Source of the DNA: a virus
IMG/VR virus record: IMGVR_UViG_3300019487_000065
Span: 1-35,741 of that record
Length of the DNA: 35,741 nt
Reading direction: 5' to 3' (one strand)
How positions within the stretch are numbered: the stretch's first letter is position 1; the number at the start of each line of letters is the position of its first letter. The translations under genes and the position numbers were made by a program. Below are positions 7,865 to 35,491 of this stretch, piece by piece. The notes under the pieces are model-generated. The model was not told the origin of the DNA. It saw nothing but the letters and a program-made list of their open reading frames with translations, and did not search any database.

Positions 7865-8097
7865 ACGCGACCCGTCGACGAATTCTGGAGCATCTCGCAC
7901 GTGCGACCGCACGTGTGTACGGACTCGACTTGGTCGCTGCGAAGATCGCGTCGCGGGCTTCATTGTACGTCCATCTGGGATGGCTCGAAGAGACAGGCCA
8001 CGTCGAAGGTGCCGAAGAGCCCGTCACGTTGCGCCGGAGCTACAAGATCACCGACAAGGGCCGTGCTGTGCTCCTGCCCGAGGCGCGCGTGCGATGA
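7861..8097 (+). CDS. small winged-helix transcriptional regulator (PadR/ArsR-like)
   Basis: ATG 7861 forms an ATGA overlap with the upstream stop. 78 aa: RRRILEHLARATARVYGLDLV ... LYVHLGWLEETGHVEG ... YKITDKGRAVL. Confidence 0.6.
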   Translation: MNATRRRILEHLARATARVYGLDLVAAKIASRASLYVHLGWLEETGHVEGAEEPVTLRRSYKITDKGRAVLLPEARVR

Positions 8098-10806: not shown

Positions 10807-11108
10807 ACGAGAAGCGCTTCCCGGTGATCCGGGGCCAGACGCGGCTACCGCGCGAGGTAGCAGCCACGTGGCCGCGCAGCGTGCCGTGGAGCTTCGTCGA
10901 GAAGTTTCGCGAGCGCGCCGAGGATAACCACAGCCAGACGCTCGAAGTGCTCGCATCGCGCGGCGGGCTCGGACCCGACGAGATGTGGCTCGCGGCGCAC
11001 GACCAGCCGCTGTCGCGCTTCCGTCAGAACGTCGAGCCGCCGAGCGAACAAGCGTGCGGCGAGTGGTTGATTGCCGAGATGCGCAAGCTCGGGGAAGGAC
11101 CGTCATGA
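10803..11108 (+). CDS. hypothetical protein
   Basis: 101-aa ORF with ATGA overlaps on both sides. Confidence 0.6.
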   Translation: MNEKRFPVIRGQTRLPREVAATWPRSVPWSFVEKFRERAEDNHSQTLEVLASRGGLGPDEMWLAAHDQPLSRFRQNVEPPSEQACGEWLIAEMRKLGEGPS

Positions 11109-15365: not shown

Positions 15366-16169
15366 TCATCGCGCTCTTCGTCGCCGCAGCGCTGCTTCTG
15401 CTTGGCGCCGTAAGGGGCCTGGGCCCGCCAGACCGGTCGCGTGACGATGATGAAAAAACAGCCCAAGCGCCGTCGTCGCCACCACAGCCGTGACGCCCGC
15501 CGCGATCAACGGGATCTTGTACTTCGAAATGGGCGACGGGGTCGGTGTGATCGTGATCGGTCCGATTTCGAGCCCGAGTTCGAGGGCTTTCAATGCGGAT
15601 GTAGCAACGTTGAGCAGCGTGACGTCGCGTTGCAGCTGCGGATCTGCGAACAGCTTGAGGGTCGTCATCGCTTCGGTACGAACGCTCGCCGGGATGTCAC
15701 GGTTCTTGAGCAGATTGTACAAGCTGACCGCGATGTATCCCTTGACAGTGTCGTTCGGCTCGATGCGACCCGCCGACGCTAACGCTTGTGCAGCAAGTGT
15801 CGGTGACACGGAATCGAACACAGGCTGCTCACCGAGTTTAAGCGCCGCGATCCGCCGAACGTTCACTTCGGTCGGCGAGACGCGCGCACCCATGCCGGTG
15901 TTACGCCAACCGGTGAGAATCGACTGCGCGATGCTGAACAAGAGCGCGTTGTCGACATCTTCAAGGAGCGTTTGCTTCTCGAAGGTCTTGATGCCCTTGG
16001 TGCCGCCGACCTGCTCGTCGCAAGTGACGACGGTGCTCGCGGCATTGTCGTCGTTACCGACGATGGGAAACGAACGGATGCATTGCTCGACGCGCTGCTT
16101 GAGTGCAGTTAGCTCGGACATCGGCGCACCGAGACCGCCGAGTGTGTTTGCGCCGGAGACGACCAGCAT
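15366..16169 (-). CDS. membrane-anchored protein (single C-terminal TM plus Arg-rich tail)
   Basis: 267 aa. N-terminus MLVVSGANTLGGLG. TM helix IPLIAAGVTAVVATTALGLFF followed by a basic tail ending RRRRAR. Confidence 0.65.
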   Translation of the reverse strand: MLVVSGANTLGGLGAPMSELTALKQRVEQCIRSFPIVGNDDNAASTVVTCDEQVGGTKGIKTFEKQTLLEDVDNALLFSIAQSILTGWRNTGMGARVSPTEVNVRRIAALKLGEQPVFDSVSPTLAAQALASAGRIEPNDTVKGYIAVSLYNLLKNRDIPASVRTEAMTTLKLFADPQLQRDVTLLNVATSALKALELGLEIGPITITPTPSPISKYKIPLIAAGVTAVVATTALGLFFHHRHATGLAGPGPLRRQAEAALRRRRAR

Positions 16170-17144
16170 CTAGTACTCCGAGTCGTCGTCGATGTCGTAG
16201 CCGCCGCTGTGTGGACGCTGGCGCGCGTGCGCACGCGGCACGGAGTGCCCGCCGCGATGCTTGCGGTAGATTACGTACCCGACGCCGCCCGCGACCGCGA
16301 GCACGCTGAGCACAGCAACCGTGCTGATCACGACAGGCGAGATCGGCTTGATCGGGGTTGGCCGACCTTCTTTGGCGGCCTTGAGAACGTCCTTCGCAGC
16401 GGCGATGCATTGCAGCCGCACGGTCTGATCGTCCGATGTACCGATGCACATGTCGCGCGTCGACACGAACAGGTCGCGGTCGCTCTGCACCTCTGCGACG
16501 CGCTGCTTGGCCTGCTCGGTGATCGCTTGATTTGCAGCGGCCGTATCGCTCGTCTGGAGAATCTTCGCGACGACGATCACTGCTGTTGCAATGACAGCAA
16601 GGCCGAGCAGGAAGAAGAGCGCGAGCGTCGGGAACGCGCCCAGTTGTCCGGCCGAGAGGTAACCCGCGAAGCCGCTGTTCTGGTAGCCCGAGAGCGACGT
16701 CGTGATCTCTTTGCCGACGATGCCGTACCGAATCTTGATCGTAGACGCTGGAACGCCGGCACCGAACCATGCGCCCAGCCCCGAAGGTGCCGGCAGATCG
16801 AACGTCGGGACCGCGATCGGCTGCGCATTCGGATCGGGCAGGTCGCTGGTGGGCGTCTGTGCGCGTGCCTGCAGCCAAATCTTGGTCGCTTCCATGAAGC
16901 TGCCGACCGCCGCGTTGTAGTTCCTCATCAGCGTGAGCAGCGGCGCCGGAATGTCCTGACCTGCCGTCTGGAGCGTAACGAGGTCGGGCAGCAACTGTGC
17001 GAACGTTGTGCGCAGCTGCGTCTCGGCTTGCGCGAGCGTGAGTCCCTGATTGGTGAGGCGCGGTACCTGCGCTTCTTCAGCGGGCGTAGCCGTAACCTGC
17101 CCGAGCTGCAGACGGCCGAACGAGGACGACGACGCGATGAGCAT
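16170..17144 (-). CDS. two-pass membrane protein
   Basis: 324 aa. N-terminus MLIASSSSFGRLQ. TM1 is FPTLALFFLLGLAVIATAVIVVA. A Cys-containing loop follows, then TM2 VVISTVAVLSVLAVAGGVGYVIY and a basic tail. First gene of the antisense island. Confidence 0.65.
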   Translation of the reverse strand: MLIASSSSFGRLQLGQVTATPAEEAQVPRLTNQGLTLAQAETQLRTTFAQLLPDLVTLQTAGQDIPAPLLTLMRNYNAAVGSFMEATKIWLQARAQTPTSDLPDPNAQPIAVPTFDLPAPSGLGAWFGAGVPASTIKIRYGIVGKEITTSLSGYQNSGFAGYLSAGQLGAFPTLALFFLLGLAVIATAVIVVAKILQTSDTAAANQAITEQAKQRVAEVQSDRDLFVSTRDMCIGTSDDQTVRLQCIAAAKDVLKAAKEGRPTPIKPISPVVISTVAVLSVLAVAGGVGYVIYRKHRGGHSVPRAHARQRPHSGGYDIDDDSEY

Positions 17145-23785: not shown

Positions 23786-23859
<74 letters not shown>

Positions 23860-23942: not shown

Positions 23943-24035
23943 TACGCGCTTGTTGTGAATGCAGTGGTTTATGAGACCACAACCTTCTCCTTATCAGGGA
24001 GATGCTCTCCAATTGAGCTATGCGTGTTAGCGCGC
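23943..24035 (-). ncRNA. 93-nt aberrant tRNA-like RNA (GAT anticodon-type arm plus a second CAT anticodon-type hairpin in place of a T arm)
   Basis: The outer stem GCGCGCT/AGCGCGT has 7 pairs, one of them G.U. The D arm TAGCTCAATTGGAGAGCA is canonical. The arms are TCTCC-CTGATAA-GGAGA and then GTGGT-CTCATAA-ACCAC. The inner acceptor pairs at only 4 of 7 positions. Confidence 0.4.
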
Positions 24036-24051
24036 AAACGGTGACGGCTTC

Positions 24052-24185
24052 GGTGGGGATTTGAGGAGTCGAACCTCTGGCTTGTAAACAATCGACTGGT
24101 GGCGCGGTCTTGAGGGCGCGCCGAGTGCCGCTGTTGGTTGTGCTTGATCCGTATTCAAGTGCCGGACCGCCCGGCGTCAATCCCC
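24052..24185 (-). tRNA. 134-nt tRNA-Arg(ACG)-like gene with a 64-nt insertion in the variable region
   Basis: The acceptor GGGGATT/AATCCCC pairs 7/7. The D arm is GCCG-GGCGGTC-CGGC and the anticodon arm is CTTGA-ATACGGA-TCAAG. The T arm is AGAGG-TTCGACT-CCTCA. The 3' end reads ACC. 64 nt separate the anticodon stem from the T stem. Confidence 0.5.
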
Positions 24186-24220
24186 AGAATCTTCAGTTGT
24201 CAGAACAGCAATTCGTAGCG

Positions 24221-24348
24221 TGGCGCAGGATGTTGGAATCGAACCAACCAGCGTGTACACAGTAGCGCGGTGCTGCCGGAGCAGCGAGTGGGTACGGTGG
24301 AGATACTTTCCGGGTAAGGGAAGCGGACGCCCAGCGTCCTTATCCTGC
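24221..24348 (-). tRNA. 128-nt tRNA-like gene (TAC in the anticodon position) with a 58-nt insertion in the variable region and encoded CCA
   Basis: The acceptor GCAGGAT/ATCCTGC pairs 7/7, followed by G-CCA. The D arm is GGAC-GCTGGGC-GTCC. The anticodon-type arm is CTTCC-CTTACCC-GGAAA, with 4 pairs plus a C.A mismatch. The T arm GTTGG-TTCGATT-CCAAC is canonical. Confidence 0.5.
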
Positions 24349-24457
24349 GTGATAACTGATCACCGAGTGCGTCGCGCTGGTTCTTTCCAGATGGTAGGAA
24401 GGTGCTCTTTGCAGAGCGGCTTGTAAGCGCGTCGCTGGTGGTGACCAGCTGATGAGC

Positions 24458-24935: not shown

Positions 24936-25151
24936 TCAACTCCTGCGTGTGACGTCGGCGCCGACACGACGACGCTCACGGGCTGACTCAACCCTCGCAA
25001 GCTGCTCGACTTTGAGCGCAGCCGAAATCGGCCGACCGCGCTTCTTACGAGGTTTCATCTTCTTGCCGTTCGCACGACGAGACCCAACCTCGATGACGTC
25101 ACCGTTACCGACGATCCACGACGAGCGGATCAGAATGTCGATCCCATCCAC
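24936..25151 (-). CDS. small basic protein with AT-hook-like KPRKKRGRP segment (start uncertain)
   Basis: The frame is open downstream of the ThiF-like gene. GTG 25151 is the first start after that gene's stop, and ATG 25058 is the alternative. No SD is seen. Confidence 0.35.
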   Translation of the reverse strand: MDGIDILIRSSWIVGNGDVIEVGSRRANGKKMKPRKKRGRPISAALKVEQLARVESARERRRVGADVTRRS

Positions 25152-25165
25152 GACTACAGATTCTA

Positions 25166-25741
25166 CTACACCGCAACGATGTTCGTAGGCGCGATCGACC
25201 AGCCGAGCTTCTTGCCGGTCTGCAGAAAAATCTGCGCCGAGCGTGCAATCAGCGCCGAGACCGTGACGATGAATGGCAGGTGCTCGCCGTCCTCGCACGT
25301 GGGCACACCCGCGGTTTCGTCATCGACGACGAAGTTCTCGTCCCAGATCACTCGACCGAACGCGCCATCAGCTGCCAACGCGCCGTGGAGCGTCGCCGGC
25401 TTGTGCTCGTTCTCGCGCGCGAACCGCTGAACCACGTGACGCGCTTCGCCGTTGTCAAGGCAGTCGATGATGAGGTCGCTGTCACGCATGAGCACGAACG
25501 CGTTGTTCAACTCCAGCTTCGCGTTGCGCACGTCGATCTTCGTCCCCCACAGGAACTGCATCGTCGCCTTGAGCGCTTCGACCTTGAGCTTGCCGCCGCC
25601 CGGCTTGCCGTGGAACTGCGACAGCATGTTCTTCGCCTCAACACGATCAAAGTCGATCACGCGCAACTCACCTGCGTTGCGCAGCAACATGGCGACGTGC
25701 GAGCCCAGTGCACCGACTCCGACGATGGTGATCTTCTTCAT
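25166..25741 (-). CDS. ThiF/MoeB/HesA-family E1-like adenylyltransferase (short form)
   Basis: ATG 25741 has GAGGAA just upstream. KKITIVGVGALGSHVAMLLRNAG (GxGxxG), VIDFDRVEAKNMLSQ and LIIDCLDNGEARHVV ... KPATLHGALAADGAFGRV follow the ThiF-family consensus. Confidence 0.75.
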   Translation of the reverse strand: MKKITIVGVGALGSHVAMLLRNAGELRVIDFDRVEAKNMLSQFHGKPGGGKLKVEALKATMQFLWGTKIDVRNAKLELNNAFVLMRDSDLIIDCLDNGEARHVVQRFARENEHKPATLHGALAADGAFGRVIWDENFVVDDETAGVPTCEDGEHLPFIVTVSALIARSAQIFLQTGKKLGWSIAPTNIVAV

Positions 25742-25775
25742 AGCTTCCTCGGGACGTTCTACAGGTTGCATTCAT

Positions 25776-25967
25776 TCACGCATCGCACCAGTCATCGGTC
25801 GTCGTCGTACGGTGCCCGACGTCGAACGCAGCATGTACCGCCTGGTGCACCTGTGCACGTTGCGTCTCGTCGATCGAGAACTGCTTCATCAGCGCGTCCT
25901 CGATCGCCTTCAGGTGCTCGTTGGCGCTGCCGCACTTCAATTTCAGGCACTCGATCGGCGTCTTCAT
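25776..25967 (-). CDS. hypothetical 63-aa protein
   Basis: ATG 25967 forms an ATGA overlap with the dCMP deaminase stop. It is the only non-Arg-rich part of the 300-aa track ORF. Confidence 0.5.
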   Translation of the reverse strand: MKTPIECLKLKCGSANEHLKAIEDALMKQFSIDETQRAQVHQAVHAAFDVGHRTTTTDDWCDA

Positions 25968-26461
25968 GGCTTCACTGAGACTGCTTGCGGCGGCGGCGTC
26001 CACTTCGCCAGCGACTCCGCGATCGGGACGGAGAGCAGATCGATGCCGTTGGCGAACGCGGCACCTGGCAGGTCGAACGCTTTGCCACCGATGTACTCGG
26101 AGCCGTAGACGATGCGTTTGATGCCCGTCTGCAGCGCCGCCATGAAGCAGTCGCGGCAGGGGCTCGCCGTCGTGTAGAGCGTACCACCTGCGAGCCGTAC
26201 GCCGTAGCGCGCCGCCGTGATGATGGCGTTCTTCTCGGCGTGGATCGTCCGCACGCAGCTCTGCCGACCGTTGATCTCGACGAGGTCGTGACCGACTTCG
26301 TCGCACGATGGCAGACCGCTCGGCGCACCGCCGTAGCCCGTCGACATGATGCGCTTGTCGAGCGCGATCACAGCACCAACGCGAGCACGATCGCAGCTCA
26401 TGCGAAGGCTCACAGCGTCGGCGATGATCATGAAGTACGTGTCCCAGTCTGGTCTGCTCAT
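25964..26461 (-). CDS. dCMP deaminase (cytidine/deoxycytidylate deaminase zinc-binding family)
   Basis: 165 aa. It has the HAEKNAI and PCRDC zinc motifs with the typical spacing, and an N-terminus (RPDWDTYFM) like ComEB-type deaminases. Confidence 0.85.
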   Translation of the reverse strand: MSRPDWDTYFMIIADAVSLRMSCDRARVGAVIALDKRIMSTGYGGAPSGLPSCDEVGHDLVEINGRQSCVRTIHAEKNAIITAARYGVRLAGGTLYTTASPCRDCFMAALQTGIKRIVYGSEYIGGKAFDLPGAAFANGIDLLSVPIAESLAKWTPPPQAVSVKP

Positions 26462-26772
26462 GTGGATCGGCCTTTCTTGTGCTTGCGCTCGAAGAGGTGA
26501 CGGATCTCGATGGACACCTGCTCGACGTCGTCACGCGGCGCCGGATGCCCCAGACGTGGATCCGGCTCGGGGATTTCAAGGATGCCGACGCGCGAACGGA
26601 ACGCCTGCGTCGGATCGCCGATGGTCTCGTAACCGAGCTGCAAGCACTCGCGATAGACCGCCGCACAACGCTCTGCAACGTCGCGTGTCGCGATCGTCCC
26701 TTCGAGCCCGAGCGAGAATTCGATGCCGGTTTGACCCTCGGTCCAGAGCACGACGTGAAAGACGGTCTTCAT
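26458..26772 (-). CDS. hypothetical protein
   Basis: 104-aa ORF with ATGA overlaps at both ends. Confidence 0.6.
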   Translation of the reverse strand: MKTVFHVVLWTEGQTGIEFSLGLEGTIATRDVAERCAAVYRECLQLGYETIGDPTQAFRSRVGILEIPEPDPRLGHPAPRDDVEQVSIEIRHLFERKHKKGRST

Positions 26773-27038
26773 GATCGGTACCTCGCAATGGCAGGTGGCA
26801 GCGGACGCGGTAACGGCAAGGGCTCGGCGCTGTCGGGCTCGAAGCCGATCTCACGGACCTCGGCATCGGTCGTGTTCTTGTCGGTGAGCAGCGCTTCAAG
26901 CGCCTCACAGCGCTTCGCCATCTCGGCGATCTGGATTTGCGCTCGACGAAAGTCACGTGTGATCCACGTACCGAACCACAACGCTCCGACGAACGGCAAC
27001 GTCTGCTCGAACACGTGCATCCAGTCCACGAACGTCAC
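26769..27038 (-). CDS. small membrane protein (one N-terminal TM)
   Basis: GTG start in a GTGA overlap. LPFVGALWFGTWI hydrophobic segment, then a coiled region and a Pro-rich tail. Confidence 0.55.
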   Translation of the reverse strand: MTFVDWMHVFEQTLPFVGALWFGTWITRDFRRAQIQIAEMAKRCEALEALLTDKNTTDAEVREIGFEPDSAEPLPLPRPLPPAIARYRS

Positions 27039-27238
27039 CGGTACGGTCCCTCGGGTACGGGCAACTCGACCTCGTACGCGATGACGACACCGCGCGCACC
27101 GACGAGATCGATGCGGGCGTCAGTGTTGTTGCGGATCTCGACCTGGATGCGTTCGGGCGCCGTAACGATCGCGCCACGCTTGCGCAGGTACTCTGCGACG
27201 GCCTCTTGAACTTCGCTGAGACTGAGCTGCACGTGCAT
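27035..27238 (-). CDS. hypothetical 67-aa protein
   Basis: ATG 27238 with AGGAG 8 nt upstream. Confidence 0.55.
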   Translation of the reverse strand: MHVQLSLSEVQEAVAEYLRKRGAIVTAPERIQVEIRNNTDARIDLVGARGVVIAYEVELPVPEGPYR

Positions 27239-27242
27239 CCTT

Positions 27243-27572
27243 TCACTCCTGGTACCACACGGCGACGAGCCGCTGATCTTCGTTCAAGTGCAGCTCGACG
27301 AGCTGACCGACCCACGGCCAGTTGTCTTCCGTGATGCCGTGCACCGACGTCGAGTGGAAGTCCATCGACTTTGTCGTGCGCATGGTCAGTTCACTGGTGA
27401 GCCGGATCTCTCGCGCGATCGACGCATGCTTCGCGATTAACGCTGCCGAGATCGCATCGACGGCGTCGTAGCCACGCTCGTCGAGCGCGTACATGAGCTT
27501 GCCCCACGAGTTCTTCCTGTCGAAGTCCCATACGACGGCGCGGCGAATACCCGACCAGCCGACCGTCGGCAC
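27243..27572 (-). CDS. hypothetical protein
   Basis: GTG 27572 shares one base with the NUDIX stop (TAGTG). ATG 27494 is the alternative. The upstream part of the track ORF overlaps the NUDIX gene. Confidence 0.5.
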   Translation of the reverse strand: MPTVGWSGIRRAVVWDFDRKNSWGKLMYALDERGYDAVDAISAALIAKHASIAREIRLTSELTMRTTKSMDFHSTSVHGITEDNWPWVGQLVELHLNEDQRLVAVWYQE

Positions 27573-28075
27573 TACAGCTCGCCGAGGGCTAGAACGGGTC
27601 GTGCGAGCGGATGGCATTGGGGGCAGGCATCGTACGTGCAACCGCTATCGCCGACGGCGTCACAGCTCGACATTGGTCGTGTCGCCTCGATGTGCTTCAC
27701 GAGCTGTGGGTAATGCCAGTAGAACGCGGGCGAGCACGGCATGCGCTGGATGGCGTACAGCGGATTGACCCAGCGCAGCTCCTGATGATCGAGTGCGCGG
27801 GGCGGCGTCGACATCGCAGCCTGCTCGATAGCGTACAGCTCGATGACGAACGAGATGTCGAGGTGCAGCATCGCCATCGAGATGAACTCGCCGACGCGCA
27901 CAACGCAGTCGCACTCCTCGCGCCACTCGCGTGCGAGCGCTTGCGACGGCGACTCGCCTGGATCGATCTTCCCGCCGGGCAGCTCCCAGAGGTCCGGTCG
28001 ATACGCAGTCTTCTTGCGCAGGCCCATCAGCACGTAGCCGTCGCGAATCAACGCCCCTGAGACAACGCGCAGCAT
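27572..28075 (-). CDS. NUDIX hydrolase (MutT-like)
   Basis: ATG 28075 lies 1 nt after the upstream stop. The Nudix box GGKIDPGESPSQALAREWREEC fits Gx5Ex7REUxEE. Confidence 0.8.
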   Translation of the reverse strand: MLRVVSGALIRDGYVLMGLRKKTAYRPDLWELPGGKIDPGESPSQALAREWREECDCVVRVGEFISMAMLHLDISFVIELYAIEQAAMSTPPRALDHQELRWVNPLYAIQRMPCSPAFYWHYPQLVKHIEATRPMSSCDAVGDSGCTYDACPQCHPLARPVLALGEL

Positions 28076-28076
28076 G

Positions 28077-28322
28077 TCAGTGCGGGCAGAGAAGCGTACC
28101 GGGTGCGCAACCGCAACCACCCTCGGCACGATTCTTCTCGGCCAGCTCCTTGAAGCTCGGTTGTGGACCGACGAAGTCGACGAACAAGCCGCGATCGAGC
28201 AGCTCGGCGCGCGTCTTGTCGACGATCTCCTGAGCGAACTCGCCAGCCCACGACTTCATCGCACTCTCGTAGACGACGTCGAGGACTTGCTGCAGGTCGC
28301 GTTGATCGCCGATCACGCTCAC
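28077..28322 (-). CDS. hypothetical 81-aa protein
   Basis: GTG 28322 forms a GTGA overlap with the stop of 28319-28639. The rest of the 168-aa track ORF is Arg-rich and overlaps that gene. Confidence 0.5.
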   Translation of the reverse strand: MSVIGDQRDLQQVLDVVYESAMKSWAGEFAQEIVDKTRAELLDRGLFVDFVGPQPSFKELAEKNRAEGGCGCAPGTLLCPH

Positions 28323-28639
28323 TCGTGAACCTGACCGCAGTTCGGGCAGCGCATGTTGCTCCAGCCGAACGCCGTCTTCGGGCGCAGCTGGATCAGGTTG
28401 TACGGACGCGCTTCCGTCGGCGGGTAGCGGTCGACGACGAAGTCGCGGAAGTCCGCGTCGCGATCGGCCGGGATGCCGGGCACGCCGCCGTTGCGCACGG
28501 CTTCGGTGACCCAGCCCTTGACGTCGTTCTCGCTCGAATCGCGGAACACCGGATCCGGTAGATCGCCGTTCTGCATCTTCCACGTGACGTTCACGCGGGC
28601 CTCGTCGTCTCGAATCACACGTACCAGTTCGTCAGCCAT
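28319..28639 (-). CDS. hypothetical protein with C-terminal CPNCG
   Basis: 106-aa ORF with AGGAGA 5 nt upstream of the ATG. A predicted promoter lies immediately upstream. Confidence 0.6.
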   Translation of the reverse strand: MADELVRVIRDDEARVNVTWKMQNGDLPDPVFRDSSENDVKGWVTEAVRNGGVPGIPADRDADFRDFVVDRYPPTEARPYNLIQLRPKTAFGWSNMRCPNCGQVHE

Positions 28640-28659
28640 GACACTCTCCTGAGCCCTTG

Positions 28660-28693
28660 ACGGTAGCGACGAGCATACGGCAAGTCAAGAGCA
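28660..28693 (-). promoter_or_regulatory. candidate promoter TGCTCTTGACT-N17-TACCGT
   Basis: On the minus strand the -35 TTGACT is at 28688-28683 and the -10 TACCGT at 28665-28660. It includes the conserved 11-mer (plus strand AGTCAAGAGCA, 28683-28693). Confidence 0.45.
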
Positions 28694-28707
28694 ATGTCGC
28701 AGCGGAA

Positions 28708-29109
28708 TCAACGGTACGGAGATCCCATCTGCGATCGCTTGCGTAGCTCGGGGACCCAGATCGGGTCGGCGACACGTGACCTACCATAGACCTCGCGACC
28801 CGGCATGCTATCCATCAGCGCCTTGCGCACGAGCACGGTCAGGTCCGAGCTTGCGATCCACCAGTTGAGCGGCCGGCCGAGCGCGTTCTCGATCGCGACG
28901 AACGACGAGATGTCCTCGCGCGATGGACCGGGCAGACCGCCGCCAGGATGCGTGTGTGCGAAGCCTGAGAGCCAGCCATCACGATTCGCTTGCCACAGCA
29001 CATCCCACAGCGTGCGGCTGTCGGGCAACGCGCCGCCCGAACGACCACCCGGCTCGTGCCAGAAGATGGGCTCGTGGTGGATGCTGATGACGACACCGGT
29101 CTCGATCAT
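28708..29109 (-). CDS. JAB/MPN (JAMM) metallopeptidase
   Basis: 133 aa. HHE is followed by FAHTHPGGGLPGPSREDI, i.e. HxH ... SxxD with one extra residue in the spacer. ATGA overlap upstream. Confidence 0.75.
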   Translation of the reverse strand: MIETGVVISIHHEPIFWHEPGGRSGGALPDSRTLWDVLWQANRDGWLSGFAHTHPGGGLPGPSREDISSFVAIENALGRPLNWWIASSDLTVLVRKALMDSMPGREVYGRSRVADPIWVPELRKRSQMGSPYR

Positions 29110-29384
29110 GGTGGATTCTCCTTCGCAGCGCGCTCACGTTCTGCTTGCACCTTCATGTCCTCGACGGTGCAGCGCACGTGTTCGCTGGCTTCGACGAGCA
29201 CAGCGAGCAGATCTTCAGGCAGCGACTTGATCAGCTCCTTGAGTCCGCAGTCGCACGGGCCCTTGTGCCAGTTGACTTGGAGCCAGTCGCAGTTCCACTT
29301 GTGCTGTACATAGCCGAGCAGATCGGTGATCGTCTGCGAACGATCACGGAGCGCGTCGGCGAGTTGTTCTTTTGCTGCGCTCAT
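29106..29384 (-). CDS. hypothetical protein
   Basis: 92-aa ORF with ATGA overlaps at both ends. Confidence 0.55.
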   Translation of the reverse strand: MSAAKEQLADALRDRSQTITDLLGYVQHKWNCDWLQVNWHKGPCDCGLKELIKSLPEDLLAVLVEASEHVRCTVEDMKVQAERERAAKENPP

Positions 29385-29599
29385 GATCGCTGCTGCCTTT
29401 CTAGTTCTTCACGCATCGCCGTCGCGAAGTCTTGCGCTTCCATTGCATCGAACTTGGGGCACGTCGGCAACTCGTGAAGCAAACTGTCCGGCTGACCGTC
29501 GATGGGACTGACACCGAACGCGATGCTCAGACCGCAGAACGGGCACGGACCAAGGTCTTCGCCTTGGAGCTGCTCGTTGTCGTTCTCGGCGTCGCTCAT
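29381..29599 (-). CDS. small zinc-ribbon protein (possibly Lar-like)
   Basis: 72 aa. GPCPFCG near the N-terminus, as in Lar-family restriction-alleviation proteins. The second half-site (H...CP) is atypical, so the call is weak. Confidence 0.55.
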   Translation of the reverse strand: MSDAENDNEQLQGEDLGPCPFCGLSIAFGVSPIDGQPDSLLHELPTCPKFDAMEAQDFATAMREELERQQRS

Positions 29600-30180
29600 G
29601 TGAGTTTCCTGTCCGCGAACTTCTGCAGCAGAATCCCGTGCGCGTCGCGATTCCAGCGCGCGTCCGCGATCGCCTCGTGATGGCTTACGTCAGGCAAGAG
29701 GTCACGGAAGCGCCCGGTGAAGCCAATGAACTTCGACCAGATCTTGAGGTCGTGGACAAGCCACGGGAAGTGCTTTGGCAGGTCGATCATCTTGCCGAAC
29801 AGCTGGCAGAACAGCACCCAGTCGTAGCTCGCGTAGTACGCCCAGACCTCGATCTGCTCCTTGGGCTCGACAGTGATGAACTGCTCGATCGCGCGTGCGA
29901 TCTCGGGTCGACGCCGCCACTTGCAGTCTACGTTGTGGACATAGTCAAGTGCGCCGCGTCGCCACGTCGGATGCTCGGGGCACGTGCAAGCCGGAAGGTG
30001 CTTGAACACGTTCTCACGCAGCCAATCGTCGGCGCCGGTCGTGTCAGGCCGGCCATCGTCGCCAAGCCAATTGCTGTCGATGAAGTACAGCTCGCGGCCG
30101 TCTTCGCACACGAGCGCGATCGAGATCAGCTTGAGCTGTGTCCCGTCATCGAGAAATTCGGTGTCCAGGTAGTAGCGCAC
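29596..30180 (-). CDS. DEDDh 3'-5' exonuclease (DnaQ-like fold)
   Basis: GTG 30180 with AGGAG 6 nt upstream. The motifs are YLDTEF (Exo I), YYASYDW (Exo II) and HHEAIADARW (Exo III, Hx4D). Confidence 0.75.
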   Translation of the reverse strand: MRYYLDTEFLDDGTQLKLISIALVCEDGRELYFIDSNWLGDDGRPDTTGADDWLRENVFKHLPACTCPEHPTWRRGALDYVHNVDCKWRRRPEIARAIEQFITVEPKEQIEVWAYYASYDWVLFCQLFGKMIDLPKHFPWLVHDLKIWSKFIGFTGRFRDLLPDVSHHEAIADARWNRDAHGILLQKFADRKLT

Positions 30181-30188
30181 GTTCTCTC

Positions 30189-30620
30189 CTATTCGGGATG
30201 CTCTGCAAGCCACTTCGCGTGGCGCTCGTCGTCCCAGTAGTCGATCAGAATCAAGTGGATGCACAGGCGTGCTTCACCATCGACGATTCGCGCAGCGACC
30301 GACGGTATCGACCAGCCAACCGATGTCTTACCGAACATCGCGATGAAGTCGGGATAGACCGCGAAGCCATTCGGCAACATCACGTCGACGGAGTTGCTCG
30401 TGATGTCGATCTTACTTTCGCTGTAGATCTCCCAATAGAAACTGTTCTGCTCGACGAGCCAATCCGGGTGCGGTTTGCCCGCTGCATCGCACTCGGCTTT
30501 GAGCTGCTCGACGGCCTCGCGCTCTTCCTTGAGCCACTCAGCGTTCTCGCGTTCGAAGCGTTTGCGAACGTCGTCGCGGAACTGCTGCGCGACTTTCTCC
30601 ATCGGCCACTCAACGCTCAC
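30189..30620 (-). CDS. hypothetical protein
   Basis: GTG 30620 forms a GTGA overlap with the upstream stop. The alternatives are ATG 30602, ATG 30635 and the track start 30656. Confidence 0.55.
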   Translation of the reverse strand: MSVEWPMEKVAQQFRDDVRKRFERENAEWLKEEREAVEQLKAECDAAGKPHPDWLVEQNSFYWEIYSESKIDITSNSVDVMLPNGFAVYPDFIAMFGKTSVGWSIPSVAARIVDGEARLCIHLILIDYWDDERHAKWLAEHPE

Positions 30621-30847
30621 AGCGAGTACTCCCATGCGTCGAAGCTGCTGTTCCACGTCCAGCCTAGCGCCGCAACACGAGCCAGATCGCCATCACCAAG
30701 CATGTCGCGATGTACACCGCCGACGTAGATCACGTCGTGTTCGGCGCTGATGTCACCGGGGTTGTCGCGCGGGCTCAAGTACTCCTCAAAGATCTTGAGA
30801 CCCGTCGTGATCTTCTGGAACGTCGTCATGTCTTTCGCTAGCAACAT
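30617..30847 (-). CDS. hypothetical 76-aa protein
   Basis: ATG 30847 shares one base with the upstream stop. The N-terminal part of the track ORF overlaps the upstream gene. Confidence 0.5.
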   Translation of the reverse strand: MLLAKDMTTFQKITTGLKIFEEYLSPRDNPGDISAEHDVIYVGGVHRDMLGDGDLARVAALGWTWNSSFDAWEYSL

Positions 30848-31188
30848 CACACGTAGTCGACGGGGCGAACTGCCATATGGATGAGGGTCTCGCGTCCAAT
30901 CGCCTGCAGTTCTTCGTCGGTGAATTGCGGGTTCCGTCGCAGCCACAAATCGAACTCGTCATGATCGATCTGCTCGACCATGAACATCTGTTGTGCACCC
31001 TTGAAGTCGGTGAACAACATCGGCCCAGTCCACTCGCCGTGCCACATCGGATCGAGCGTTGCACCGATCGATTCGAGCGCGTCGAATATCGTCGCGTGCC
31101 CTCGCTGCTGAATCTTTGCGCGAACCTTGAGCGCGTTCGCTTTGAGTGATGCCGCCGCTGCTGCTGCTTTCAACTTGTCGACGTCCAC
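30847..31188 (-). CDS. hypothetical protein
   Basis: GTG 31188 with GGGAG 6 nt upstream. 113 aa. Confidence 0.55.
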   Translation of the reverse strand: MDVDKLKAAAAAASLKANALKVRAKIQQRGHATIFDALESIGATLDPMWHGEWTGPMLFTDFKGAQQMFMVEQIDHDEFDLWLRRNPQFTDEELQAIGRETLIHMAVRPVDYV

Positions 31189-31197
31189 GTTCGCTCC

Positions 31198-32145
31198 CTA
31201 GTTGACGTTGCGAAACACGACTAGCACACCGAGGTTCATTGCTTCACGTACCACAGCCGGTAGCGACTCCAGCGTGAACTTGGTGTCGCCCTTTTCGCCG
31301 GTCGCGTGGTTCACGAGGCAGATACCGGCGTCGATGATGTGCAGTCGCTCGTCACAGACGCACTCGAAGCGTCGACGTTCGAGCCGGTAACGCACGACCC
31401 ACTCGTTGCGGTTGCGCACCTTGTTCCAACTGAGCAGTTCTGCACCGCCGACCGTGAGCGCGGCACGTGCCGCCGTCTCGAAGTCGACTTTGGCCATCTC
31501 GCGACGACCCGCACCGTCACCGAGCTGCCTCACCAGATTCTGGCGTCGCTCCTCGGCGGCACGCTTAGCTTCTTCCTCGGCGCGTAGACGTTCAAGTTCA
31601 GCGCGACGACGTGCTGCTTCGATGCGTTGCCACACAGCCATCCGAAACGCTGCGTCGAGCGCGGGCGTGACGCCCTTGATGGCGTTGACGTCCGTCGCTT
31701 GGTCCTCGTACGCACGCAGGACATCTTCCTCGGGACCGAGCGGCATCTCGACCTGACGAAAGAACAGCGGACCGTCGGACGTGATGCAGCCAACACTGAC
31801 ACGCGCGAAGCGATCAACATCGTCGTTGATCAGGTTCACGCGCGGCAGTCGCTTGGCGACATCCTCGACGTTGATCACGACGCGATCGATGAAGCTCTCG
31901 GTCGCGAAGTGATCACCGACGAGGTAGCCGAAGTGCACCTGCCCAAGCGTGGCCGCTGATAGCTCTGCAGCTTCGTGCAACGTCGCCGTACGACCCTTGA
32001 GCAGCGTGAAGCTGTACCAGCCGTGTTCGGCCGGTGTGGGACCGACGAGCGTCCACTTGCGCGAGAACGATCGCAGCTCGCGACCGCCAATCCACGGCAG
32101 CACGATGCGTTCGTCGTTCTGATGCAGTAGGTCTCGCCAGCTCAT
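31198..32145 (-). CDS. hypothetical protein with central charged coiled coil, directly downstream of the vWA gene
   Basis: 315 aa. The ATG lies 3 nt after the vWA gene stop. It contains EAARRRAELERLRAEEEAKRAAEERRQ. No family recognised. Confidence 0.6.
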   Translation of the reverse strand: MSWRDLLHQNDERIVLPWIGGRELRSFSRKWTLVGPTPAEHGWYSFTLLKGRTATLHEAAELSAATLGQVHFGYLVGDHFATESFIDRVVINVEDVAKRLPRVNLINDDVDRFARVSVGCITSDGPLFFRQVEMPLGPEEDVLRAYEDQATDVNAIKGVTPALDAAFRMAVWQRIEAARRRAELERLRAEEEAKRAAEERRQNLVRQLGDGAGRREMAKVDFETAARAALTVGGAELLSWNKVRNRNEWVVRYRLERRRFECVCDERLHIIDAGICLVNHATGEKGDTKFTLESLPAVVREAMNLGVLVVFRNVN

Positions 32146-32148
32146 GTT

Positions 32149-34086
32149 TCACGCACACGCCCAAACGGGCTTCTTCAGCAGATCGGTCTTCAGGATTTGA
32201 TCAACGAGCGTCAGGCGCGGTGCCGCAACCGCTCGCACGGTGACCGGCGTCGCAGCGATCAGGGCTCGAATCGTGCGCGGGATTGCATACGTGTCCTCGA
32301 ACGTCTGCTCGTTGATCATGAAGCACGGAATACCGAGACGCTTCGCCGTCTCACGAACCGCGATGTTGTTCTCGCCGTTCTGCTGCTGATGACGGTACGC
32401 CGCTGCGCCGTTGTGCGGGACCGTCTTCACGAAGCCGAACGCCATCGGACGCAGACCCGATGCCGCGACCTGCTGATCGAACGCGTGCGCTTCCTCGTCA
32501 CCGACGAAGATGAACAGCGCGTCCTCGTCGGCCTGGGGCGGGTACTTCATCAGTTCACGCACGCCGGCACCGTAGTCGGTACCGCCACTCGCCGTGATGC
32601 CCTGGAACGCGTTCGTGACGCCGGCTGCCGATGCGTGCTTGAGCTTGACCTCACGACCCACCGTGTTGAACACGGCAATGTGCGTGCGATCGGCCGGGAA
32701 GCCCTGCAGGAACTTCGCGACGTACGTCTTCGCTGCCTCGATCGATGACTGCATCGAGCCCGAGATGTCGACGAAGAAGTAGACGCGGATGTTCTTCGCG
32801 ACTTCCTCGACGGCCTTCTTGATTGCCGTGTCAGCTGCCTCGGCGAGCTTGTCCTTCACTTCCTTGGACTGGACGTTCTTCGCGACGTTGAGCGTGCGCG
32901 AGTCCTCAGCCTTGGCGAGCGCCCTCTCCCAACGTGCCTTGATGTCGGGCACGTCGAGCAGACCCAGCTCTTCCAACGTTGGCGTTGCGATCACAAGATC
33001 ACGGTCCGAGAGCGCCTTCGCCTCGATCGCAGCTGCGACCACCGCACGCGTCAGTTGGCCCTTCGGCAGCCGACCCGTGATGGCCTTCCAGTCCGGCTTC
33101 TCGGCGACAATCCGCTCGCAGATCTGCGCCTCGGTCAGCTCGTTCCATGACTCAGCCTGCACGATGTTGATGTCCACCATCGTGCGATGACCGTCCTTGG
33201 ACTGGAGCTGCTTCCAGCGAAGCTCCTCGAAGAACTTGGGCGTGTTCGGCTTGTAGTGCACGCGGCGCGCGAGCTGGATCACCGTCTTGCGGAAACCCGC
33301 CTTGACGAGACCAGTCAGCAGCGGCGGGTTCTCCTCGCGATGACGTAGCCACTTCTCCGCGACCTCAGGCCAACGGCCAAGGAACGGGTGACGCGGCGAC
33401 ACGCCCAGGCCCATCTCGCGGTTGATCGCCGCGATCTCGGGCAGCATGAGCACCTCACGGATGCGCAGCAGGTTCTTGGCGTTCAGATCCTTGTCCTTCT
33501 TACGGATCAGCATCATCGCCTCGCCAATGTCGCGGAAGTCGTCGTCGTAGAACGCGACCTTGTCACCGTCGAGCACGGCGTCACCGCGACGCGTCTGCAC
33601 GAGCATGAACGCGGCGAGCACGACCTTGAGGTCGCGGTGGTCCTGGTTGAACGCATACGACGCCCAGCGCGCGGCGAATTCGTTGTCGAGCTTCCACACC
33701 TCGACGATTTGCTTGTACATCCACGCCGCGACCTCGGGGAAGATGCCCGCGTCGCGGTACTCGCCGATGATCGGATGGTTCGGGCTCGCGTCGGTGCGGA
33801 CGTGCTTGAGCACACCGTTCGGACCGACAGCCTCGGTGATCACACCGAGCTTCGTCTTGAGCGTCTTCTTGCCGCTCTTCGACAGCTTGTAGATGACCGT
33901 GCGCTTGGTGCCGTTGATCTCTTCGACTTTCGGCGTCACGGGTTCCCAACGCACGCCGACGTTGGTGCGCTTGTCCTCGATCACGATGCCGGGACGGCCG
34001 TGATAGAGGTGATCGGTGTAGGTAAGGACCGACGCGATGATGCGCTCGGCCGGACCCAGGTTCTCGCGATTGTTGACGTTGACCAT
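32149..34086 (-). CDS. vWA-domain protein with N-terminal TROVE-like helical module (Ro60/Rsr-like architecture)
   Basis: ATG 34086 with AAGGAG 7 nt upstream. The vWA MIDAS elements are FFVDISGSM, SGGTDYG and IFVGDEE. Upstream, GRWPEVAEKWLRH ... FRKTVIQLARRVHYKP parallels the Ro60 TROVE signature (WGRxLRxAIxxWY ... LLRLSHxKP) from memory. Confidence 0.65.
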   Translation of the reverse strand: MVNVNNRENLGPAERIIASVLTYTDHLYHGRPGIVIEDKRTNVGVRWEPVTPKVEEINGTKRTVIYKLSKSGKKTLKTKLGVITEAVGPNGVLKHVRTDASPNHPIIGEYRDAGIFPEVAAWMYKQIVEVWKLDNEFAARWASYAFNQDHRDLKVVLAAFMLVQTRRGDAVLDGDKVAFYDDDFRDIGEAMMLIRKKDKDLNAKNLLRIREVLMLPEIAAINREMGLGVSPRHPFLGRWPEVAEKWLRHREENPPLLTGLVKAGFRKTVIQLARRVHYKPNTPKFFEELRWKQLQSKDGHRTMVDINIVQAESWNELTEAQICERIVAEKPDWKAITGRLPKGQLTRAVVAAAIEAKALSDRDLVIATPTLEELGLLDVPDIKARWERALAKAEDSRTLNVAKNVQSKEVKDKLAEAADTAIKKAVEEVAKNIRVYFFVDISGSMQSSIEAAKTYVAKFLQGFPADRTHIAVFNTVGREVKLKHASAAGVTNAFQGITASGGTDYGAGVRELMKYPPQADEDALFIFVGDEEAHAFDQQVAASGLRPMAFGFVKTVPHNGAAAYRHQQQNGENNIAVRETAKRLGIPCFMINEQTFEDTYAIPRTIRALIAATPVTVRAVAAPRLTLVDQILKTDLLKKPVWACA

Positions 34087-34492: not shown

Positions 34493-35491
34493 CTAACCCT
34501 CGAACGTGAAGGTCGCGATCGGGCGACTCTGATCGCCGTACGAACCGTCTGCCGCTGCACGCACACCGTACACGCGGTACGCCGCGTTCACGAACTGGTT
34601 CATGTTCTCGGGCGTGATCTCGATGTAGCGCATCGGCGTCGCCGAGTAGCCGCTCGGACCGCGTGTACCGTCTGCTGCCATTCGGAAGAGCTTGCCGTCG
34701 CGCACCACGAACAGCACGGTGTGATGCCACCAGCGCCACGTACCGTTCGCTTGCTTTGTCGACTGGCCGCAGACAAGGAACGTCGGCAGCGTCGCGACGC
34801 GATCGAGCAGCTCCCTGATGTCGATGACGTTCGAGACGCCCATGCGACGGATGCTGGAACCGTCGGGCAGGATGCGGAAGCACACGTCACCGAAGCCGCG
34901 CCACGGACTCGCACCGGGGTTCTGGTGCAACTCGGGACCCTTCTCCACCAGATCGAACAGCGACGGGATGTTGCCCGCGTGCGTGAAGTCCTGGTTGCGA
35001 CGGTTCAACCACGACAGGAAGAAGTTCGTGAACGACGTGCAGTGGAACGCCGGGTACGTGCGGTTGAGGACGTTGGGCCACTCCTTCACCGTGCCGCCGG
35101 TCTTGCCGGCGCCGTACGTGATGATGAACTTGTCGCCCTGCCACAGACCGCGTCCGGGTCCGTAGCGCACCGGCTTGCCGGTGATCGCCGTGACGAACGT
35201 CTGGAATGCGGTCCACGTCGAGCTGTTGCACGGCACGAACTCGGTCGGGGGCTGCGTCGTTTCATCGCTGGGCTTGTGCTTTGCGATGGCAGCGTCGAGC
35301 GCGCCTTGCGTCTGCGGACCCGCGATCCCGTCGTCGTCGACATCGGGACGATCGAGCTGGAACGCGAGCACGGCCGCCGTCGTCAGCTTGCCGTAGATAC
35401 CGTCGACGTCGCCGGGATCGTAGCCGCACGCCTTCAGCTTGAGCTGCAGCATCTCGACATCGGGACCCTTGTCACCTGGCTTGAGAATCAC
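34493..35491 (-). CDS. endolysin: N-terminal peptidoglycan-binding domain plus C-terminal putative Cys/His peptidase-amidase domain
   Basis: GDKGPDVEMLQLKLKACGYDPGDVDGIYGKLTTAAVLAFQ ... DGIAGPQTQGAL is a PG_binding_1-type repeat. The C-terminal domain has candidate catalytic residues FHCTSF and WWHHTVLFV (inference). Confidence 0.8.
   Translation of the reverse strand: MILKPGDKGPDVEMLQLKLKACGYDPGDVDGIYGKLTTAAVLAFQLDRPDVDDDGIAGPQTQGALDAAIAKHKPSDETTQPPTEFVPCNSSTWTAFQTFVTAITGKPVRYGPGRGLWQGDKFIITYGAGKTGGTVKEWPNVLNRTYPAFHCTSFTNFFLSWLNRRNQDFTHAGNIPSLFDLVEKGPELHQNPGASPWRGFGDVCFRILPDGSSIRRMGVSNVIDIRELLDRVATLPTFLVCGQSTKQANGTWRWWHHTVLFVVRDGKLFRMAADGTRGPSGYSATPMRYIEITPENMNQFVNAAYRVYGVRAAADGSYGDQSRPIATFTFEG

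Follow-up and report, generated by a model that had tools for sequence, protein, structure and literature searches.

Introduction

So far, conjugation of ubiquitin-like proteins (Ubls) in prokaryotes has been demonstrated for the SAMPs of archaea and for antiphage systems of the host (CBASS, Bil and Bub), and the ThiF-like genes of phages and viruses noted in the literature are only stand-alone E1s that are presumed to use host Ubls. The subject of this work is a set of five genes on the minus strand of the virus record IMGVR_UViG_3300019487_000065, whose phage-like sequence of 35,741 nt, with a G+C content (GC) of about 62%, was analysed at full length and is referred to here as the window. 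These genes encode, in this order, a protein with a von Willebrand A (VWA) domain, a protein of 315 amino acids (aa) that belongs to no known family (X315), a JAMM-type metallopeptidase (JAB), a strong candidate for a Ubl and a minimal E1-like adenylating enzyme of the ThiF/MoeB superfamily. Taken together, the evidence presented below indicates that the five genes very probably constitute a module for the processing and activation of the Ubl.

Several described systems share parts of this arrangement. Bil (BilABCD) likewise comprises a separate Ubl, an E1 and a JAB, and its peptidase BilC has been shown experimentally to pre-process the Ubl, exposing the C-terminal Gly before adenylation (PMC10557695). 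Bil, however, is a host-encoded defence that uses an E2 of the UBC type and a large two-domain E1 whose Cys domain is mobile, whereas the module described here is phage-encoded, has an E1 of 191 aa and no recognisable E2, and carries as partners X315 and a VWA protein with a metal ion-dependent adhesion site (MIDAS). Type II CBASS Cap2/Cap3 resembles the module in its E1 domain and in the pairing of a JAB with an E1, but in that system the CD-NTase itself is conjugated and there is no free Ubl; the module contains neither a CD-NTase nor an E2 domain, and its loci come from viral contigs of IMG/VR and from a Caudoviricetes record in GenBank, not from host defence islands. The SAMP/UbaA/HvJAMM1 system and TtuB/TtuC of Thermus combine a small E1 resembling MoeB with a beta-grasp modifier and a JAMM peptidase, need no E2 or E3 for conjugation and are linked to tRNA thiolation. 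Their modifiers have a GG terminus and serve additionally as sulfur carriers, with known sulfurtransferase partners, whereas here the terminus is FG and the partners are two novel conserved proteins.

A single-Gly terminus placed after a bulky residue and followed by a short removable tail is known from UFM1 (...VG followed by SC) and Atg8 (...FG followed by R). The UFM1-UBA5-UFC1 and Atg8/Atg12-Atg7 systems thus share with the module a single-Gly precursor and also a minimal E1, homodimeric there and presumably here (UBA5 being matched in the PDB at ~5e-10), but their protease is a Cys protease and not a JAMM enzyme, and homology of the Ubl to UFM1 or Atg8 was undetectable by hhalign. The closest described gene neighbourhood is the 'FtsH ternary' set of the vWA-MoxR systems, for which Kaur et al. 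2020 (PMC7159879) describe genomic coupling of a vWA gene with genes for a JAB, an E1 and a Ubl. Only the vWA-plus-Ubl theme is shared with it: those systems are bacterial and include a MoxR AAA+ ATPase, FtsH, a RING E3, a Ubl-E2 fusion and caspase-like effectors, none of which was found here. Phages of the lambda type encode a Ubl with a terminal Gly (TAPI) beside a JAB+NlpC protein predicted to cleave it (TAPK) (PMC1779556), but these are tail genes of another Ubl family without an E1, whereas the present module lies among tRNA and nucleotide-metabolism genes.

Full-text searches of the literature returned no published description of the five-gene module, and the survey of jumbo phages by Iyer et al. 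2021 makes no mention of it. The chemistry, ubiquitin-like activation, is the known part of the system; novelty lies in the Ubl family, the minimal E1, both partners, ownership by a virus and the tRNA surroundings.

Conservation of the five-gene module

Searching IMG/VR with a profile of the Ubl yielded 50 loci on contigs of 5.5-536 kb. As far as the flanks extend, the genes for the VWA protein, X315, JAB, Ubl and E1, located with hidden Markov models, follow one another in this order and on one strand in all 50. The order is kept in the GenBank record of Virus Rctr197k (Caudoviricetes), in which the E1 alone is named, as well as on 19 contigs from GTDB genomes. In the resulting set of 68 non-redundant loci, cited below by L numbers where needed, all open reading frames (ORFs) of at least 60 aa were clustered all-against-all, and the frequencies of the five families and of the next most frequent one are given in Table 1. 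Fully compact versions exist, such as that at L051 354-4508, and in compact loci the genes abut or overlap. The window holds an expanded copy of the module, spanning 25166-34086, because the genes that intervene there each occur in five loci only.

A sequence-only reading of the window had paired the ThiF-type gene with the JAMM gene as parts of a ubiquitin-like conjugation module. The two are co-oriented and in fixed order in 60 of the 68 loci, which supports a functional link between them; that reading had thus joined true parts of the module, but it missed the Ubl, and the VWA and X315 genes lie outside the stretch (25166-29109) that it covered.

The module seems to be carried by a single lineage of large phages, with contigs of up to 536 kb that are often binned with Myxococcota. 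All 19 species-representative matches (L060-L078) are contigs of metagenome-assembled genomes and none comes from an isolate; 12 of the 19 are labelled Myxococcota, Polyangia, Kofleriaceae, Sorangium or Deltaproteobacteria, labels that are either a hint at the host or the product of phage contigs having been binned by composition. A tblastn search returned Virus Rctr197k, one distant uncultured phage and nothing else, and megablast of the window against INPHARED gave zero nucleotide matches. PHROGs, PADLOC and NCBIfam hold no family for four of the five module proteins. Gene fusions between module families (the Rosetta-stone test) were absent among the 441 proteins examined, and neither a CD-NTase nor an AAA+/MoxR protein was among the conserved neighbour families of the 68-locus clustering. 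Free-standing HNH genes occur within and around the module at varying sites (L008 5564-6382, L012 8879-9577 and L050 10277-10885).

Table 1. Features of the five-gene module and of inserted genes, with positions in the window and numbers of loci in which each family is found
Feature	Position	Strand	Loci	Remarks
VWA protein, first module gene	32149..34086	-	66/68	645 aa from ATG 34086; open frame up to 34161
X315, second module gene	31198..32145	-	68/68	315 aa; no known family
JAMM/MPN+ (Prok-JAB) metallopeptidase	28708..29109	-	60/68	133 aa; E3, H52, H54, S63, D66
Ubl precursor (candidate)	28319..28639	-	68/68	106 aa; core ~8-92, end R86-P-K88-T-A-F-G92, then 14-residue tail
Gly92 codon of the Ubl	28364..28366	-		predicted mature C-terminus, JAB cleavage point and E1-adenylated residue
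Ubl tail WSNMRCPNCGQVHE	codons 28322-28363	-		14 residues after G92
Minimal E1-like adenylating enzyme, ThiF/MoeB superfamily	25166..25741	-	65/68	191 aa; Pfam ThiF
Invariant crossover-loop Cys149 of the E1	codon 25295-25297	-		from conservation and MoeB alignment
Rv2179c-like 3'-5' exoribonuclease	29596-30264			inserted within the module, this clade only
NUDIX hydrolase	27572-28129	-		inserted within the module, this clade only
dCMP deaminase	25964-26461	-		inserted within the module, this clade only
Candidate tRNA-like element, weak	24054..24186	-		read from sequence; R1 model ~20 bits
HNH homing endonucleases, next most frequent family			23/68	inserted at varying points

The candidate ubiquitin-like protein

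The ORF immediately downstream of JAB, whose ATG is preceded by an AGGAGA Shine-Dalgarno sequence, is a strong candidate for a ubiquitin-like protein, judging from its family alignment and its predicted fold. It was spotted through a distant relative (L005, a 446-kb contig with an E1 that is 59% identical), in which a 93-aa homologue lies within a compact cassette encoding a VWA protein of 620 aa, a 322-aa protein, a JAB of 125 aa, the 93-aa protein itself and a ThiF protein of 191 aa. The family counts at least 387 homologues. Its C-terminal motif RPKT[AP]FG is invariant, and beyond this motif the tails differ wholly in length and sequence. Gly92 is invariant in 94 aligned sequences, and the terminus preceding the tail is F-G (or Y-G), a single Gly and not a di-glycine. 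Among the 108 motif-matching homologues within the matches listed, the tails measure 0-79 residues; 12 of the 108 have none, their end being the Gly, and 33 carry one extra residue of any kind. Within the loci, tails of up to 115 residues are found. An invariant motif followed by variable tails reads as the pattern of ubiquitin-family precursors.

Many tails contain Cys-rich knuckles or CxxC motifs (P0175-P0195 and P0248-P0281), and that of the window reads CPNCG; others are made up of acidic repeats or whole extra domains. The longest, with the 115 extra residues, belongs to the Ubl of L008 (7353-7973), for which a precomputed label gives the Pfam family 'Lockin' (PF26760), an assignment that was not reproduced with the Pfam copy used.

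The AlphaFold model computed with the 94-sequence alignment has a predicted local distance difference test score (pLDDT) of 84.7 and a beta-beta-alpha-beta-beta arrangement, formed by strands 13-20 and 23-26, helix 37-50 and strands 67-72 and 81-87, the last of which runs into the conserved C-terminal motif. By inspection, about two thirds of the top 50 Foldseek matches of this model in the PDB (for their significance, see below) are ubiquitin-fold domains, of the UBL, PB1, PI3K (the aligned part being taken as the Ras-binding domain), RA, SUMO-like, DCX (doublecortin) and EccD types. The sole significant match of a fold search in BFVD, with 53% identity and a length (166 aa) equal to that of the Rctr197k homologue, is taken as this orthologue. 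Searches with the sequence against Pfam, PHROGs and the PDB (profile) gave no match, so it is understandable that the sequence-only reading, which had found no beta-grasp partner for the E1, passed over a protein that ends in RPKTAFG92 plus 14 residues.

The JAMM peptidase and the C-terminal tail

The window JAB matches Pfam Prok-JAB with E=0.004 and 17.5 bits, below the gathering score of 25; in its family, 45 of 49 members match this model at E<=0.01 (best 8e-9), and the family matches Prok-JAB and not RadC, the identity against which it was checked. The five catalytic columns of the motif E3...H52-T-H54...S63-R-E-D66 are invariant in the 49 sequences, those from genomes with a tail-less Ubl included, in agreement with the JAMM assignment made earlier from the window alone. 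A PDB profile search returned only RPN11, as a weak match (E~0.45).

A closer view of the relation between the peptidase and the tail is provided by eight loci that have no JAB and keep the other four genes, with 18-260 nt between X315 and the Ubl. In all eight the Ubl ORF stops exactly at the Gly, compared with 11 of the 58 distinct Ubl genes that are accompanied by a JAB (Fisher p=1.3e-5, without phylogenetic correction), the tail being present in the remaining 47. In a crude neighbour-joining tree of X315 the loci without JAB occupy at least four separate positions, beside JAB-bearing sisters with tails. Joint loss of JAB and tail is as expected if JAB removes the tail, and from this covariation we infer that JAB trims the C-terminus of the Ubl. 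In the 11 loci where the Ubl is tail-less and JAB is nevertheless kept, nine of the peptidases are present in the alignment and all of these have their catalytic residues intact, so JAB probably has a second role such as deconjugation.

Those 11 loci, with an intact active site and a Ubl that needs no trimming, would also suit a counter-defence peptidase that strips host Ubl conjugates (Bil tags on phage tails, cGAS conjugates of CBASS), the E1 and Ubl serving as decoys. Host defences based on Ubls do exist (PMC10557695, PMC10097602) and the E1 resembles Cap2 E1 domains. We nonetheless hold this explanation to be very unlikely: in the loci sampled, JAB is lost only where the Ubl ORF ends at the Gly, which couples it to the phage's own Ubl, the eight loci without it keep the other four genes, and neighbour clustering and PADLOC revealed no link to Bil or CBASS components. 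Undoing a host Ubl-based defence, as had been suggested from the sequence, is not needed as an explanation because the phage encodes its own Ubl.

The same covariation bears on whether the five genes form a functional unit at all. They could be neighbouring core genes of one lineage with unrelated jobs, the E1 adenylating a small molecule; the shared gene order and common descent do explain part of the co-occurrence, and the E1 lacks one canonical Arg. This is nevertheless extremely improbable, as the five families alone are retained while HNH insertions and tRNA counts (0-42) turn over around and between them, the loss of JAB covaries with the stop position of the Ubl, the genes abut or overlap in compact loci, and the invariant terminal Gly with its variable tails has no other ready explanation.

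The E1-like enzyme

The ThiF-type gene recognised in the sequence-only reading was confirmed by Pfam ThiF with E=3.8e-21 and 75.8 bits (gathering cut-off 28.1). At least 1733 homologues exist, of ~190 aa among the matches listed. In an alignment of 71 sequences the invariant residues include G8, G10 and G13 (GxGxxG), D30, D32, K53, D93, D96, N97, R101 and C149, so that the nucleotide loop, the Mg-ATP Asp of D-x-x-D-N and the conserved Lys are all kept. The family profile aligns with MoeB (1jw9) over residues 3-173 (E=2e-15), placing C149 opposite the crossover-loop Cys of 'ALTC'. Further PDB matches are Uba4, UBA5 (~5e-10), TcdA, ThiF, SAE2, Cap2 (~1e-5) and BubCD; the CBASS E1-E2 models of PADLOC match up to 2e-18, and no NCBIfam model matches at its cut-off. 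The family alignments contain no zinc CxxC motifs, the chain ending at residue 191 without CxxC pairs, and the enzyme has no accessory domain, neither a rhodanese nor an E2 domain. To our knowledge, this is the smallest E1. The suggestion that it might adenylate a non-protein substrate now appears unlikely.

The main alternative, a different use of the same chemistry, would be a sulfur-carrier pathway, in which the Ubl, of the ThiS/MoaD/TtuB/Urm1 type, is adenylated by the E1 and donates sulfur as a thiocarboxylate to phage tRNAs, a nucleotide or a cofactor, and JAB only matures the carrier or releases the product as Mec+ does for CysO. The best E1 matches (MoeB, Uba4 and ThiF) fit such a pathway, as does C149 at the position of the MoeB/ThiF persulfide or acyl-disulfide Cys. 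So does the setting in tRNA arrays, with 672 tRNA genes within 10 kb of the module over the 68 loci, 96% of them on the module strand. CysO/Mec+ and QbsE/QbsD offer precedents for a JAB with an extended carrier (Iyer 2006, PMC1779556). The terminus, however, is F-G and not the G-G of characterised sulfur carriers, roughly one locus in five lacks any tRNA within 10 kb, and the VWA protein and X315 are the only conserved neighbours, none of a sulfurtransferase or synthase type: rhodanese, cysteine desulfurase, PP-loop ATPase, ThiG, MoaE, CysM and TtuA/NcsA had no matches among them. A sulfur-carrier function is thus possible but unlikely.

X315 and the VWA protein

X315 has 377 representatives among the 1.84 billion cluster representatives of a library clustered at 50%. 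Its AlphaFold model (pLDDT 92.8) consists of a beta-rich N-terminal domain, a long basic helix of ~50 residues (161-209) and, at the C-terminus, an alpha-4beta-loop-alpha domain. G274 and C276, both invariant and part of the motif D-A/S-G-I/V-C-L-T-D-H, are modelled in the loop that follows the last of the four strands and precedes a helix; C262 is near-invariant. The motif recalls what we take to be the E2 active sites G-x-I-C-L-D (UBC) and K-I-C-L-T-D-H (UFC1), a likeness that the searches did not confirm. A PDB profile search with the C-terminal domain gave no match, and assignment of X315 to the UBC- or UFC1-type E2s was unsupported by Pfam, PDB profiles, Foldseek (whose top matches include no E2) and hhalign, the resemblance to UFC1 being that of a short motif and a lead at that level only. 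The absence of a UBC-type E2 remarked on from the sequence thus held in the Pfam, PDB profile and Foldseek searches, and the conserved neighbours likewise gave no match to an E2 family. On motif and model, X315 is regarded as the foremost candidate for an acceptor or transfer protein of the Ubl, not as a member of the E2 family. It was also considered as an RNA-binding protein, for which there are only weak Foldseek matches, to OB/CSD/S1 folds and dsRBD, and both of its domains are acidic.

The start of the VWA protein was inferred from the match of MVNVNNRENLGPAERII to homologues, and residues are numbered from it. The window protein matches Pfam VWA_2 (1.3e-07), a model that 44 of 45 family members also match, and its C-terminal VWA domain contains a complete and invariant MIDAS (D440-x-S442-x-S444, T503 and D530). 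The N-terminal region of ~430 aa is basic (median isoelectric point (pI) 9.4) and has no match in Pfam or the PDB. It carries an invariant D-H-x-x-H-N-R-P-G (residues ~25-33, in the region of window positions 33990-34020) as well as E14, and this motif may be a metal-binding or catalytic site. Neither the Pfam scans of 45 VWA family members nor the PDB profile searches with the whole protein and with its N-terminal 430 aa detected TROVE/Ro60, and identification of the protein as Ro60/TROVE or as CobT was without sequence support in these searches.

Proposed mechanism

The reading preferred here is that the module activates the phage-encoded Ubl and conjugates it to protein, to which we assign a probability of roughly 0.55. 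Five steps would be involved. The Ubl is made as a precursor in which the RPKTAFG end is blocked by the variable tail, as the comparison of homologues shows. The JAMM peptidase would then cut off the tail and expose Gly92, a step to which the covariation of JAB loss with the tail and the BilC precedent both point. In the third step the E1, presumably a homodimer like MoeB and UBA5, would adenylate Gly92, as its active-site residues and its alignment with MoeB suggest, and may hold the Ubl as a thioester on Cys149. Next, the activated Ubl would be handed on to a target, which is most likely a lysine in a protein, this being the weakest step of the scheme; here X315, with the invariant Cys of its G-I/V-C-L motif, is the best candidate for an E2-like carrier, and the MIDAS-containing VWA protein is a candidate for a substrate-binding scaffold or for the target itself. 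Finally, JAB would probably also reverse the modification.

Several observations weigh against this scheme. All steps past adenylation are extrapolated from the parts present. No UBC-fold E2 or E3 was recognised, X315 being negative by Pfam, PDB profile searches and Foldseek, and hhalign gave its C-terminal domain 0.2% against UBE2D2/UBC9/UBE2N and 5% against UFC1, with approximate reference sequences in each case. The Foldseek matches of the Ubl in the PDB are not significant (best E 0.25, TM ~0.3-0.46), and hhalign of the Ubl against ubiquitin, NEDD8, SUMO1, ThiS, MoaD, Atg8 and UFM1 was negative. The best sequence matches of the E1 include the sulfur-carrier E1s MoeB, Uba4 and ThiF, and the enzyme lacks the Arg of N-L-x-R-Q: the corresponding residues are N38-M-L-S-Q42, in which N38 and Q42 are invariant and a Ser takes the place of the Arg, for which R21 or R33 might substitute. 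Lastly, all loci may descend from one phage lineage, which weakens the argument from conserved gene order.

What is in hand is a Ubl family of hundreds to thousands of members that is phage-encoded together with its own processing protease, a minimal E1 and two partners without an assigned fold family. Should the module prove to conjugate, it would represent a tagging system that operates in bacteria and is owned by a virus; its target could reveal a new route of host takeover or protection, and its compact set of E1, Ubl and protease would serve mechanistic and evolutionary work, with an Atg8/UFM1-like modifier but a JAMM protease. The link between loss of JAB and the tail-less Ubl makes the first step directly testable.

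tRNA arrays and a permuted tRNA-like RNA

In many loci the module forms an island in arrays of co-oriented tRNA genes (L041 1821-20210, L050 443-19201, L034 130-16520 and L018 319-20140). The number of tRNA genes within 10 kb on either side ranges from 0 to 42, and two of the tRNA genes lie inside the module. A tRNA is found at no more than 1.5 kb after the E1 gene in 38 of 57 loci and at no more than 1.5 kb before the VWA gene in 28 of 54. Because the module sits in these arrays, beside the RNA described next, a target in translation or tRNA biology, or in host defences aimed at it, suggests itself, a speculative point. In L034 a phage-encoded tmRNA (16160-16520), with the tag ANDNSIADRLVA, closes the tRNA array that lies downstream of the module.

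A structured RNA is encoded 0.08-2 kb downstream of the E1 in 24 loci, 57 loci having a downstream flank of more than 1.5 kb. It is composed of YACAAGC, a T-arm, a 7-bp acceptor-like stem closed by a short loop, a D-arm, an anticodon-like arm and CACAAC, in this order, and reads as a tRNA permuted at the variable loop. Copies lie at L018 11126-11214, L036 11325-11417, L062 10967-11056 and 11145-11240, L005 8773-8864 and L059 (Rctr197k) 10771-10864, and their anticodon-like loops vary from one to another. A covariance model built from five copies (R1) finds 29 copies at 61-98 bits. In their alignment 98.6% of cells are paired and compensatory changes occur in 17 of the 20 pairs, with slid controls at no more than 50%; as the alignment was fitted to the R1 model the pair counts favour the structure, and the contrast with the slid controls is still large. 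Matches below ~45 bits were discounted collectively, not hit by hit, as probable junctions of adjacent ordinary tRNAs, and the authors of the work on YrlA give a like caution about dimeric tRNAs (PMC4201824).

The nearest described RNA is YrlA, which has the same order of T-arm, acceptor stem-loop and D-arm and is encoded beside Ro60 (TROVE+VWA) in bacteria and phages (PMC4201824). The Rfam YrlA model aligns to the permuted RNA over its full length, though weakly (23.9 bits against a gathering score of 69). Ro60/YrlA and the present loci thus have in common a protein with a C-terminal MIDAS-VWA domain near an RNA that mimics tRNA; they differ in that the VWA protein here has no TROVE similarity, that the permutation point is the variable loop and not the anticodon stem, with the Ro-binding stems unmatched, and that Ro60 loci have no Ubl, E1 or JAB.

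The RNA could on these grounds be the centre of the module, the VWA protein being a divergent Ro60-like protein and the permuted RNA its Y-RNA-like partner, with Ubl, E1 and JAB regulating the pair or recruited by it; taken to its extreme, the E1 would attach the carboxylate of the Ubl to an RNA 3' end in the manner of an aminoacyl-tRNA synthetase. Apart from the covarying RNA in 24 loci and the full-length alignment of YrlA, which adjoins Ro60 genes, the Ro60-like domain order of the VWA protein with its basic N-terminal domain would be accounted for. We regard this as decidedly improbable in view of the absence of TROVE/Ro60 similarity in the Pfam and PDB profile searches, the different permutation point and unmatched stems, the weak recognisability of the RNA in the window and the acidic domains of X315; the adjacency could, moreover, reflect the surrounding tRNA array. 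A broader combination, quite unlikely as well, is a six-part RNA-linked Ubl system in which a Ro60-like MIDAS-VWA protein, the permuted RNA, X315 as a novel sort of E2-like carrier and the Ubl, E1 and JAB together tag, during infection, the translation machinery or machinery directed at tRNA or, at the extreme, place the Ubl on an RNA 3' end. If that were true, large phages would own a eukaryote-style modifier system with new parts that is wired to tRNA biology. Besides the link between JAB and tail, the tRNA arrays and the covarying permuted RNA offer a second, independent lead.

The candidate tRNA-like element of the window (Table 1) consists of an acceptor-like stem (GGGGATT/AAATCCCC), an anticodon-like arm, CACAAC, an insert ending in TTTACAAGC and a T-arm (GAGGTTCGACTCCTC). 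The insert, at the position of the variable loop, measures 63 nt when CACAAC and TTTACAAGC are counted, and these two bounding motifs also flank the permuted RNA in relatives. ARAGORN and Rfam make no call here, and removal of the insert yields no tRNA by ARAGORN. A further CTTACAAGC (24419-24427, minus strand) and a T-arm-like hairpin (24232-24248, minus strand) lie upstream of the element. On the same strand, 23956-24027 is called as a tRNA by Rfam (43.9 bits, loop CUGAUAA, anticodon GAU) and not by ARAGORN; its acceptor stem contains mismatches and its T-loop is degenerate, it adjoins tRNA-Met at 23786-23859, and it may be a decaying or atypical tRNA.

Among the tRNAs of the arrays, ARAGORN calls several with A34 anticodons: His-AUG (L005 9060, L063 11892 and L055 3717), Asp-AUC (L057 12062 and L046 15967), Asn-AUU (L033 13514), Tyr-AUA (L051 4724), Val-AAC (L016 9246 and L030 11594) and Ile-AAU (L043 202 and L069 8601). 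They cover the His, Asp, Asn and Tyr boxes of the queuosine family, plus Val and Ile, and are often the first tRNA after the E1. Anticodons of these kinds with A34 are very unusual, and the tRNAs could be real, decoys or miscalls.

Surrounding genes

The minus strand of the window is a string of closely spaced genes that holds both the E1 and the JAB. A dCMP deaminase (Pfam, E=1e-21) and a NUDIX protein (Pfam, E=2.6e-12) lie between these two on the common strand, as the sequence-only reading had it. Together with the Rv2179c-like exonuclease and the small ORFs, each is found in only five of the 68 loci, all close relatives, and they were ruled out as parts of the module; because of this restriction, the genes that separate E1 from JAB are taken as clade-specific insertions.

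The small ORF directly after the E1 (24936-25151, minus strand), which had been described as locally ThiS-like, has a weak coding signal and homologues only in the closest relatives (L001-L004, L009 and L010; six loci). It encodes a small basic KPRKKRG protein with the AT-hook-like motif GKKMKPRKKRG(R/K)PIS, and the part upstream of GDVIEVG is too short for a beta-grasp domain, so it was ruled out as the Ubl; from its sequence and distribution the protein appears unrelated to the module.

A scan for promoters and terminators gave zero promoter-like sites, and the terminators it gave were no more frequent than expected by chance. The gene at 34493-35491, next to the VWA gene on its upstream side, encodes a PG_binding_1 protein, likely a lysin. 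The ORF at 5988-6710 belongs to a repeatedly inserted family that is related to the HNH genes and coincides with a low-GC patch at 6001-8000 (GC 0.52-0.57).

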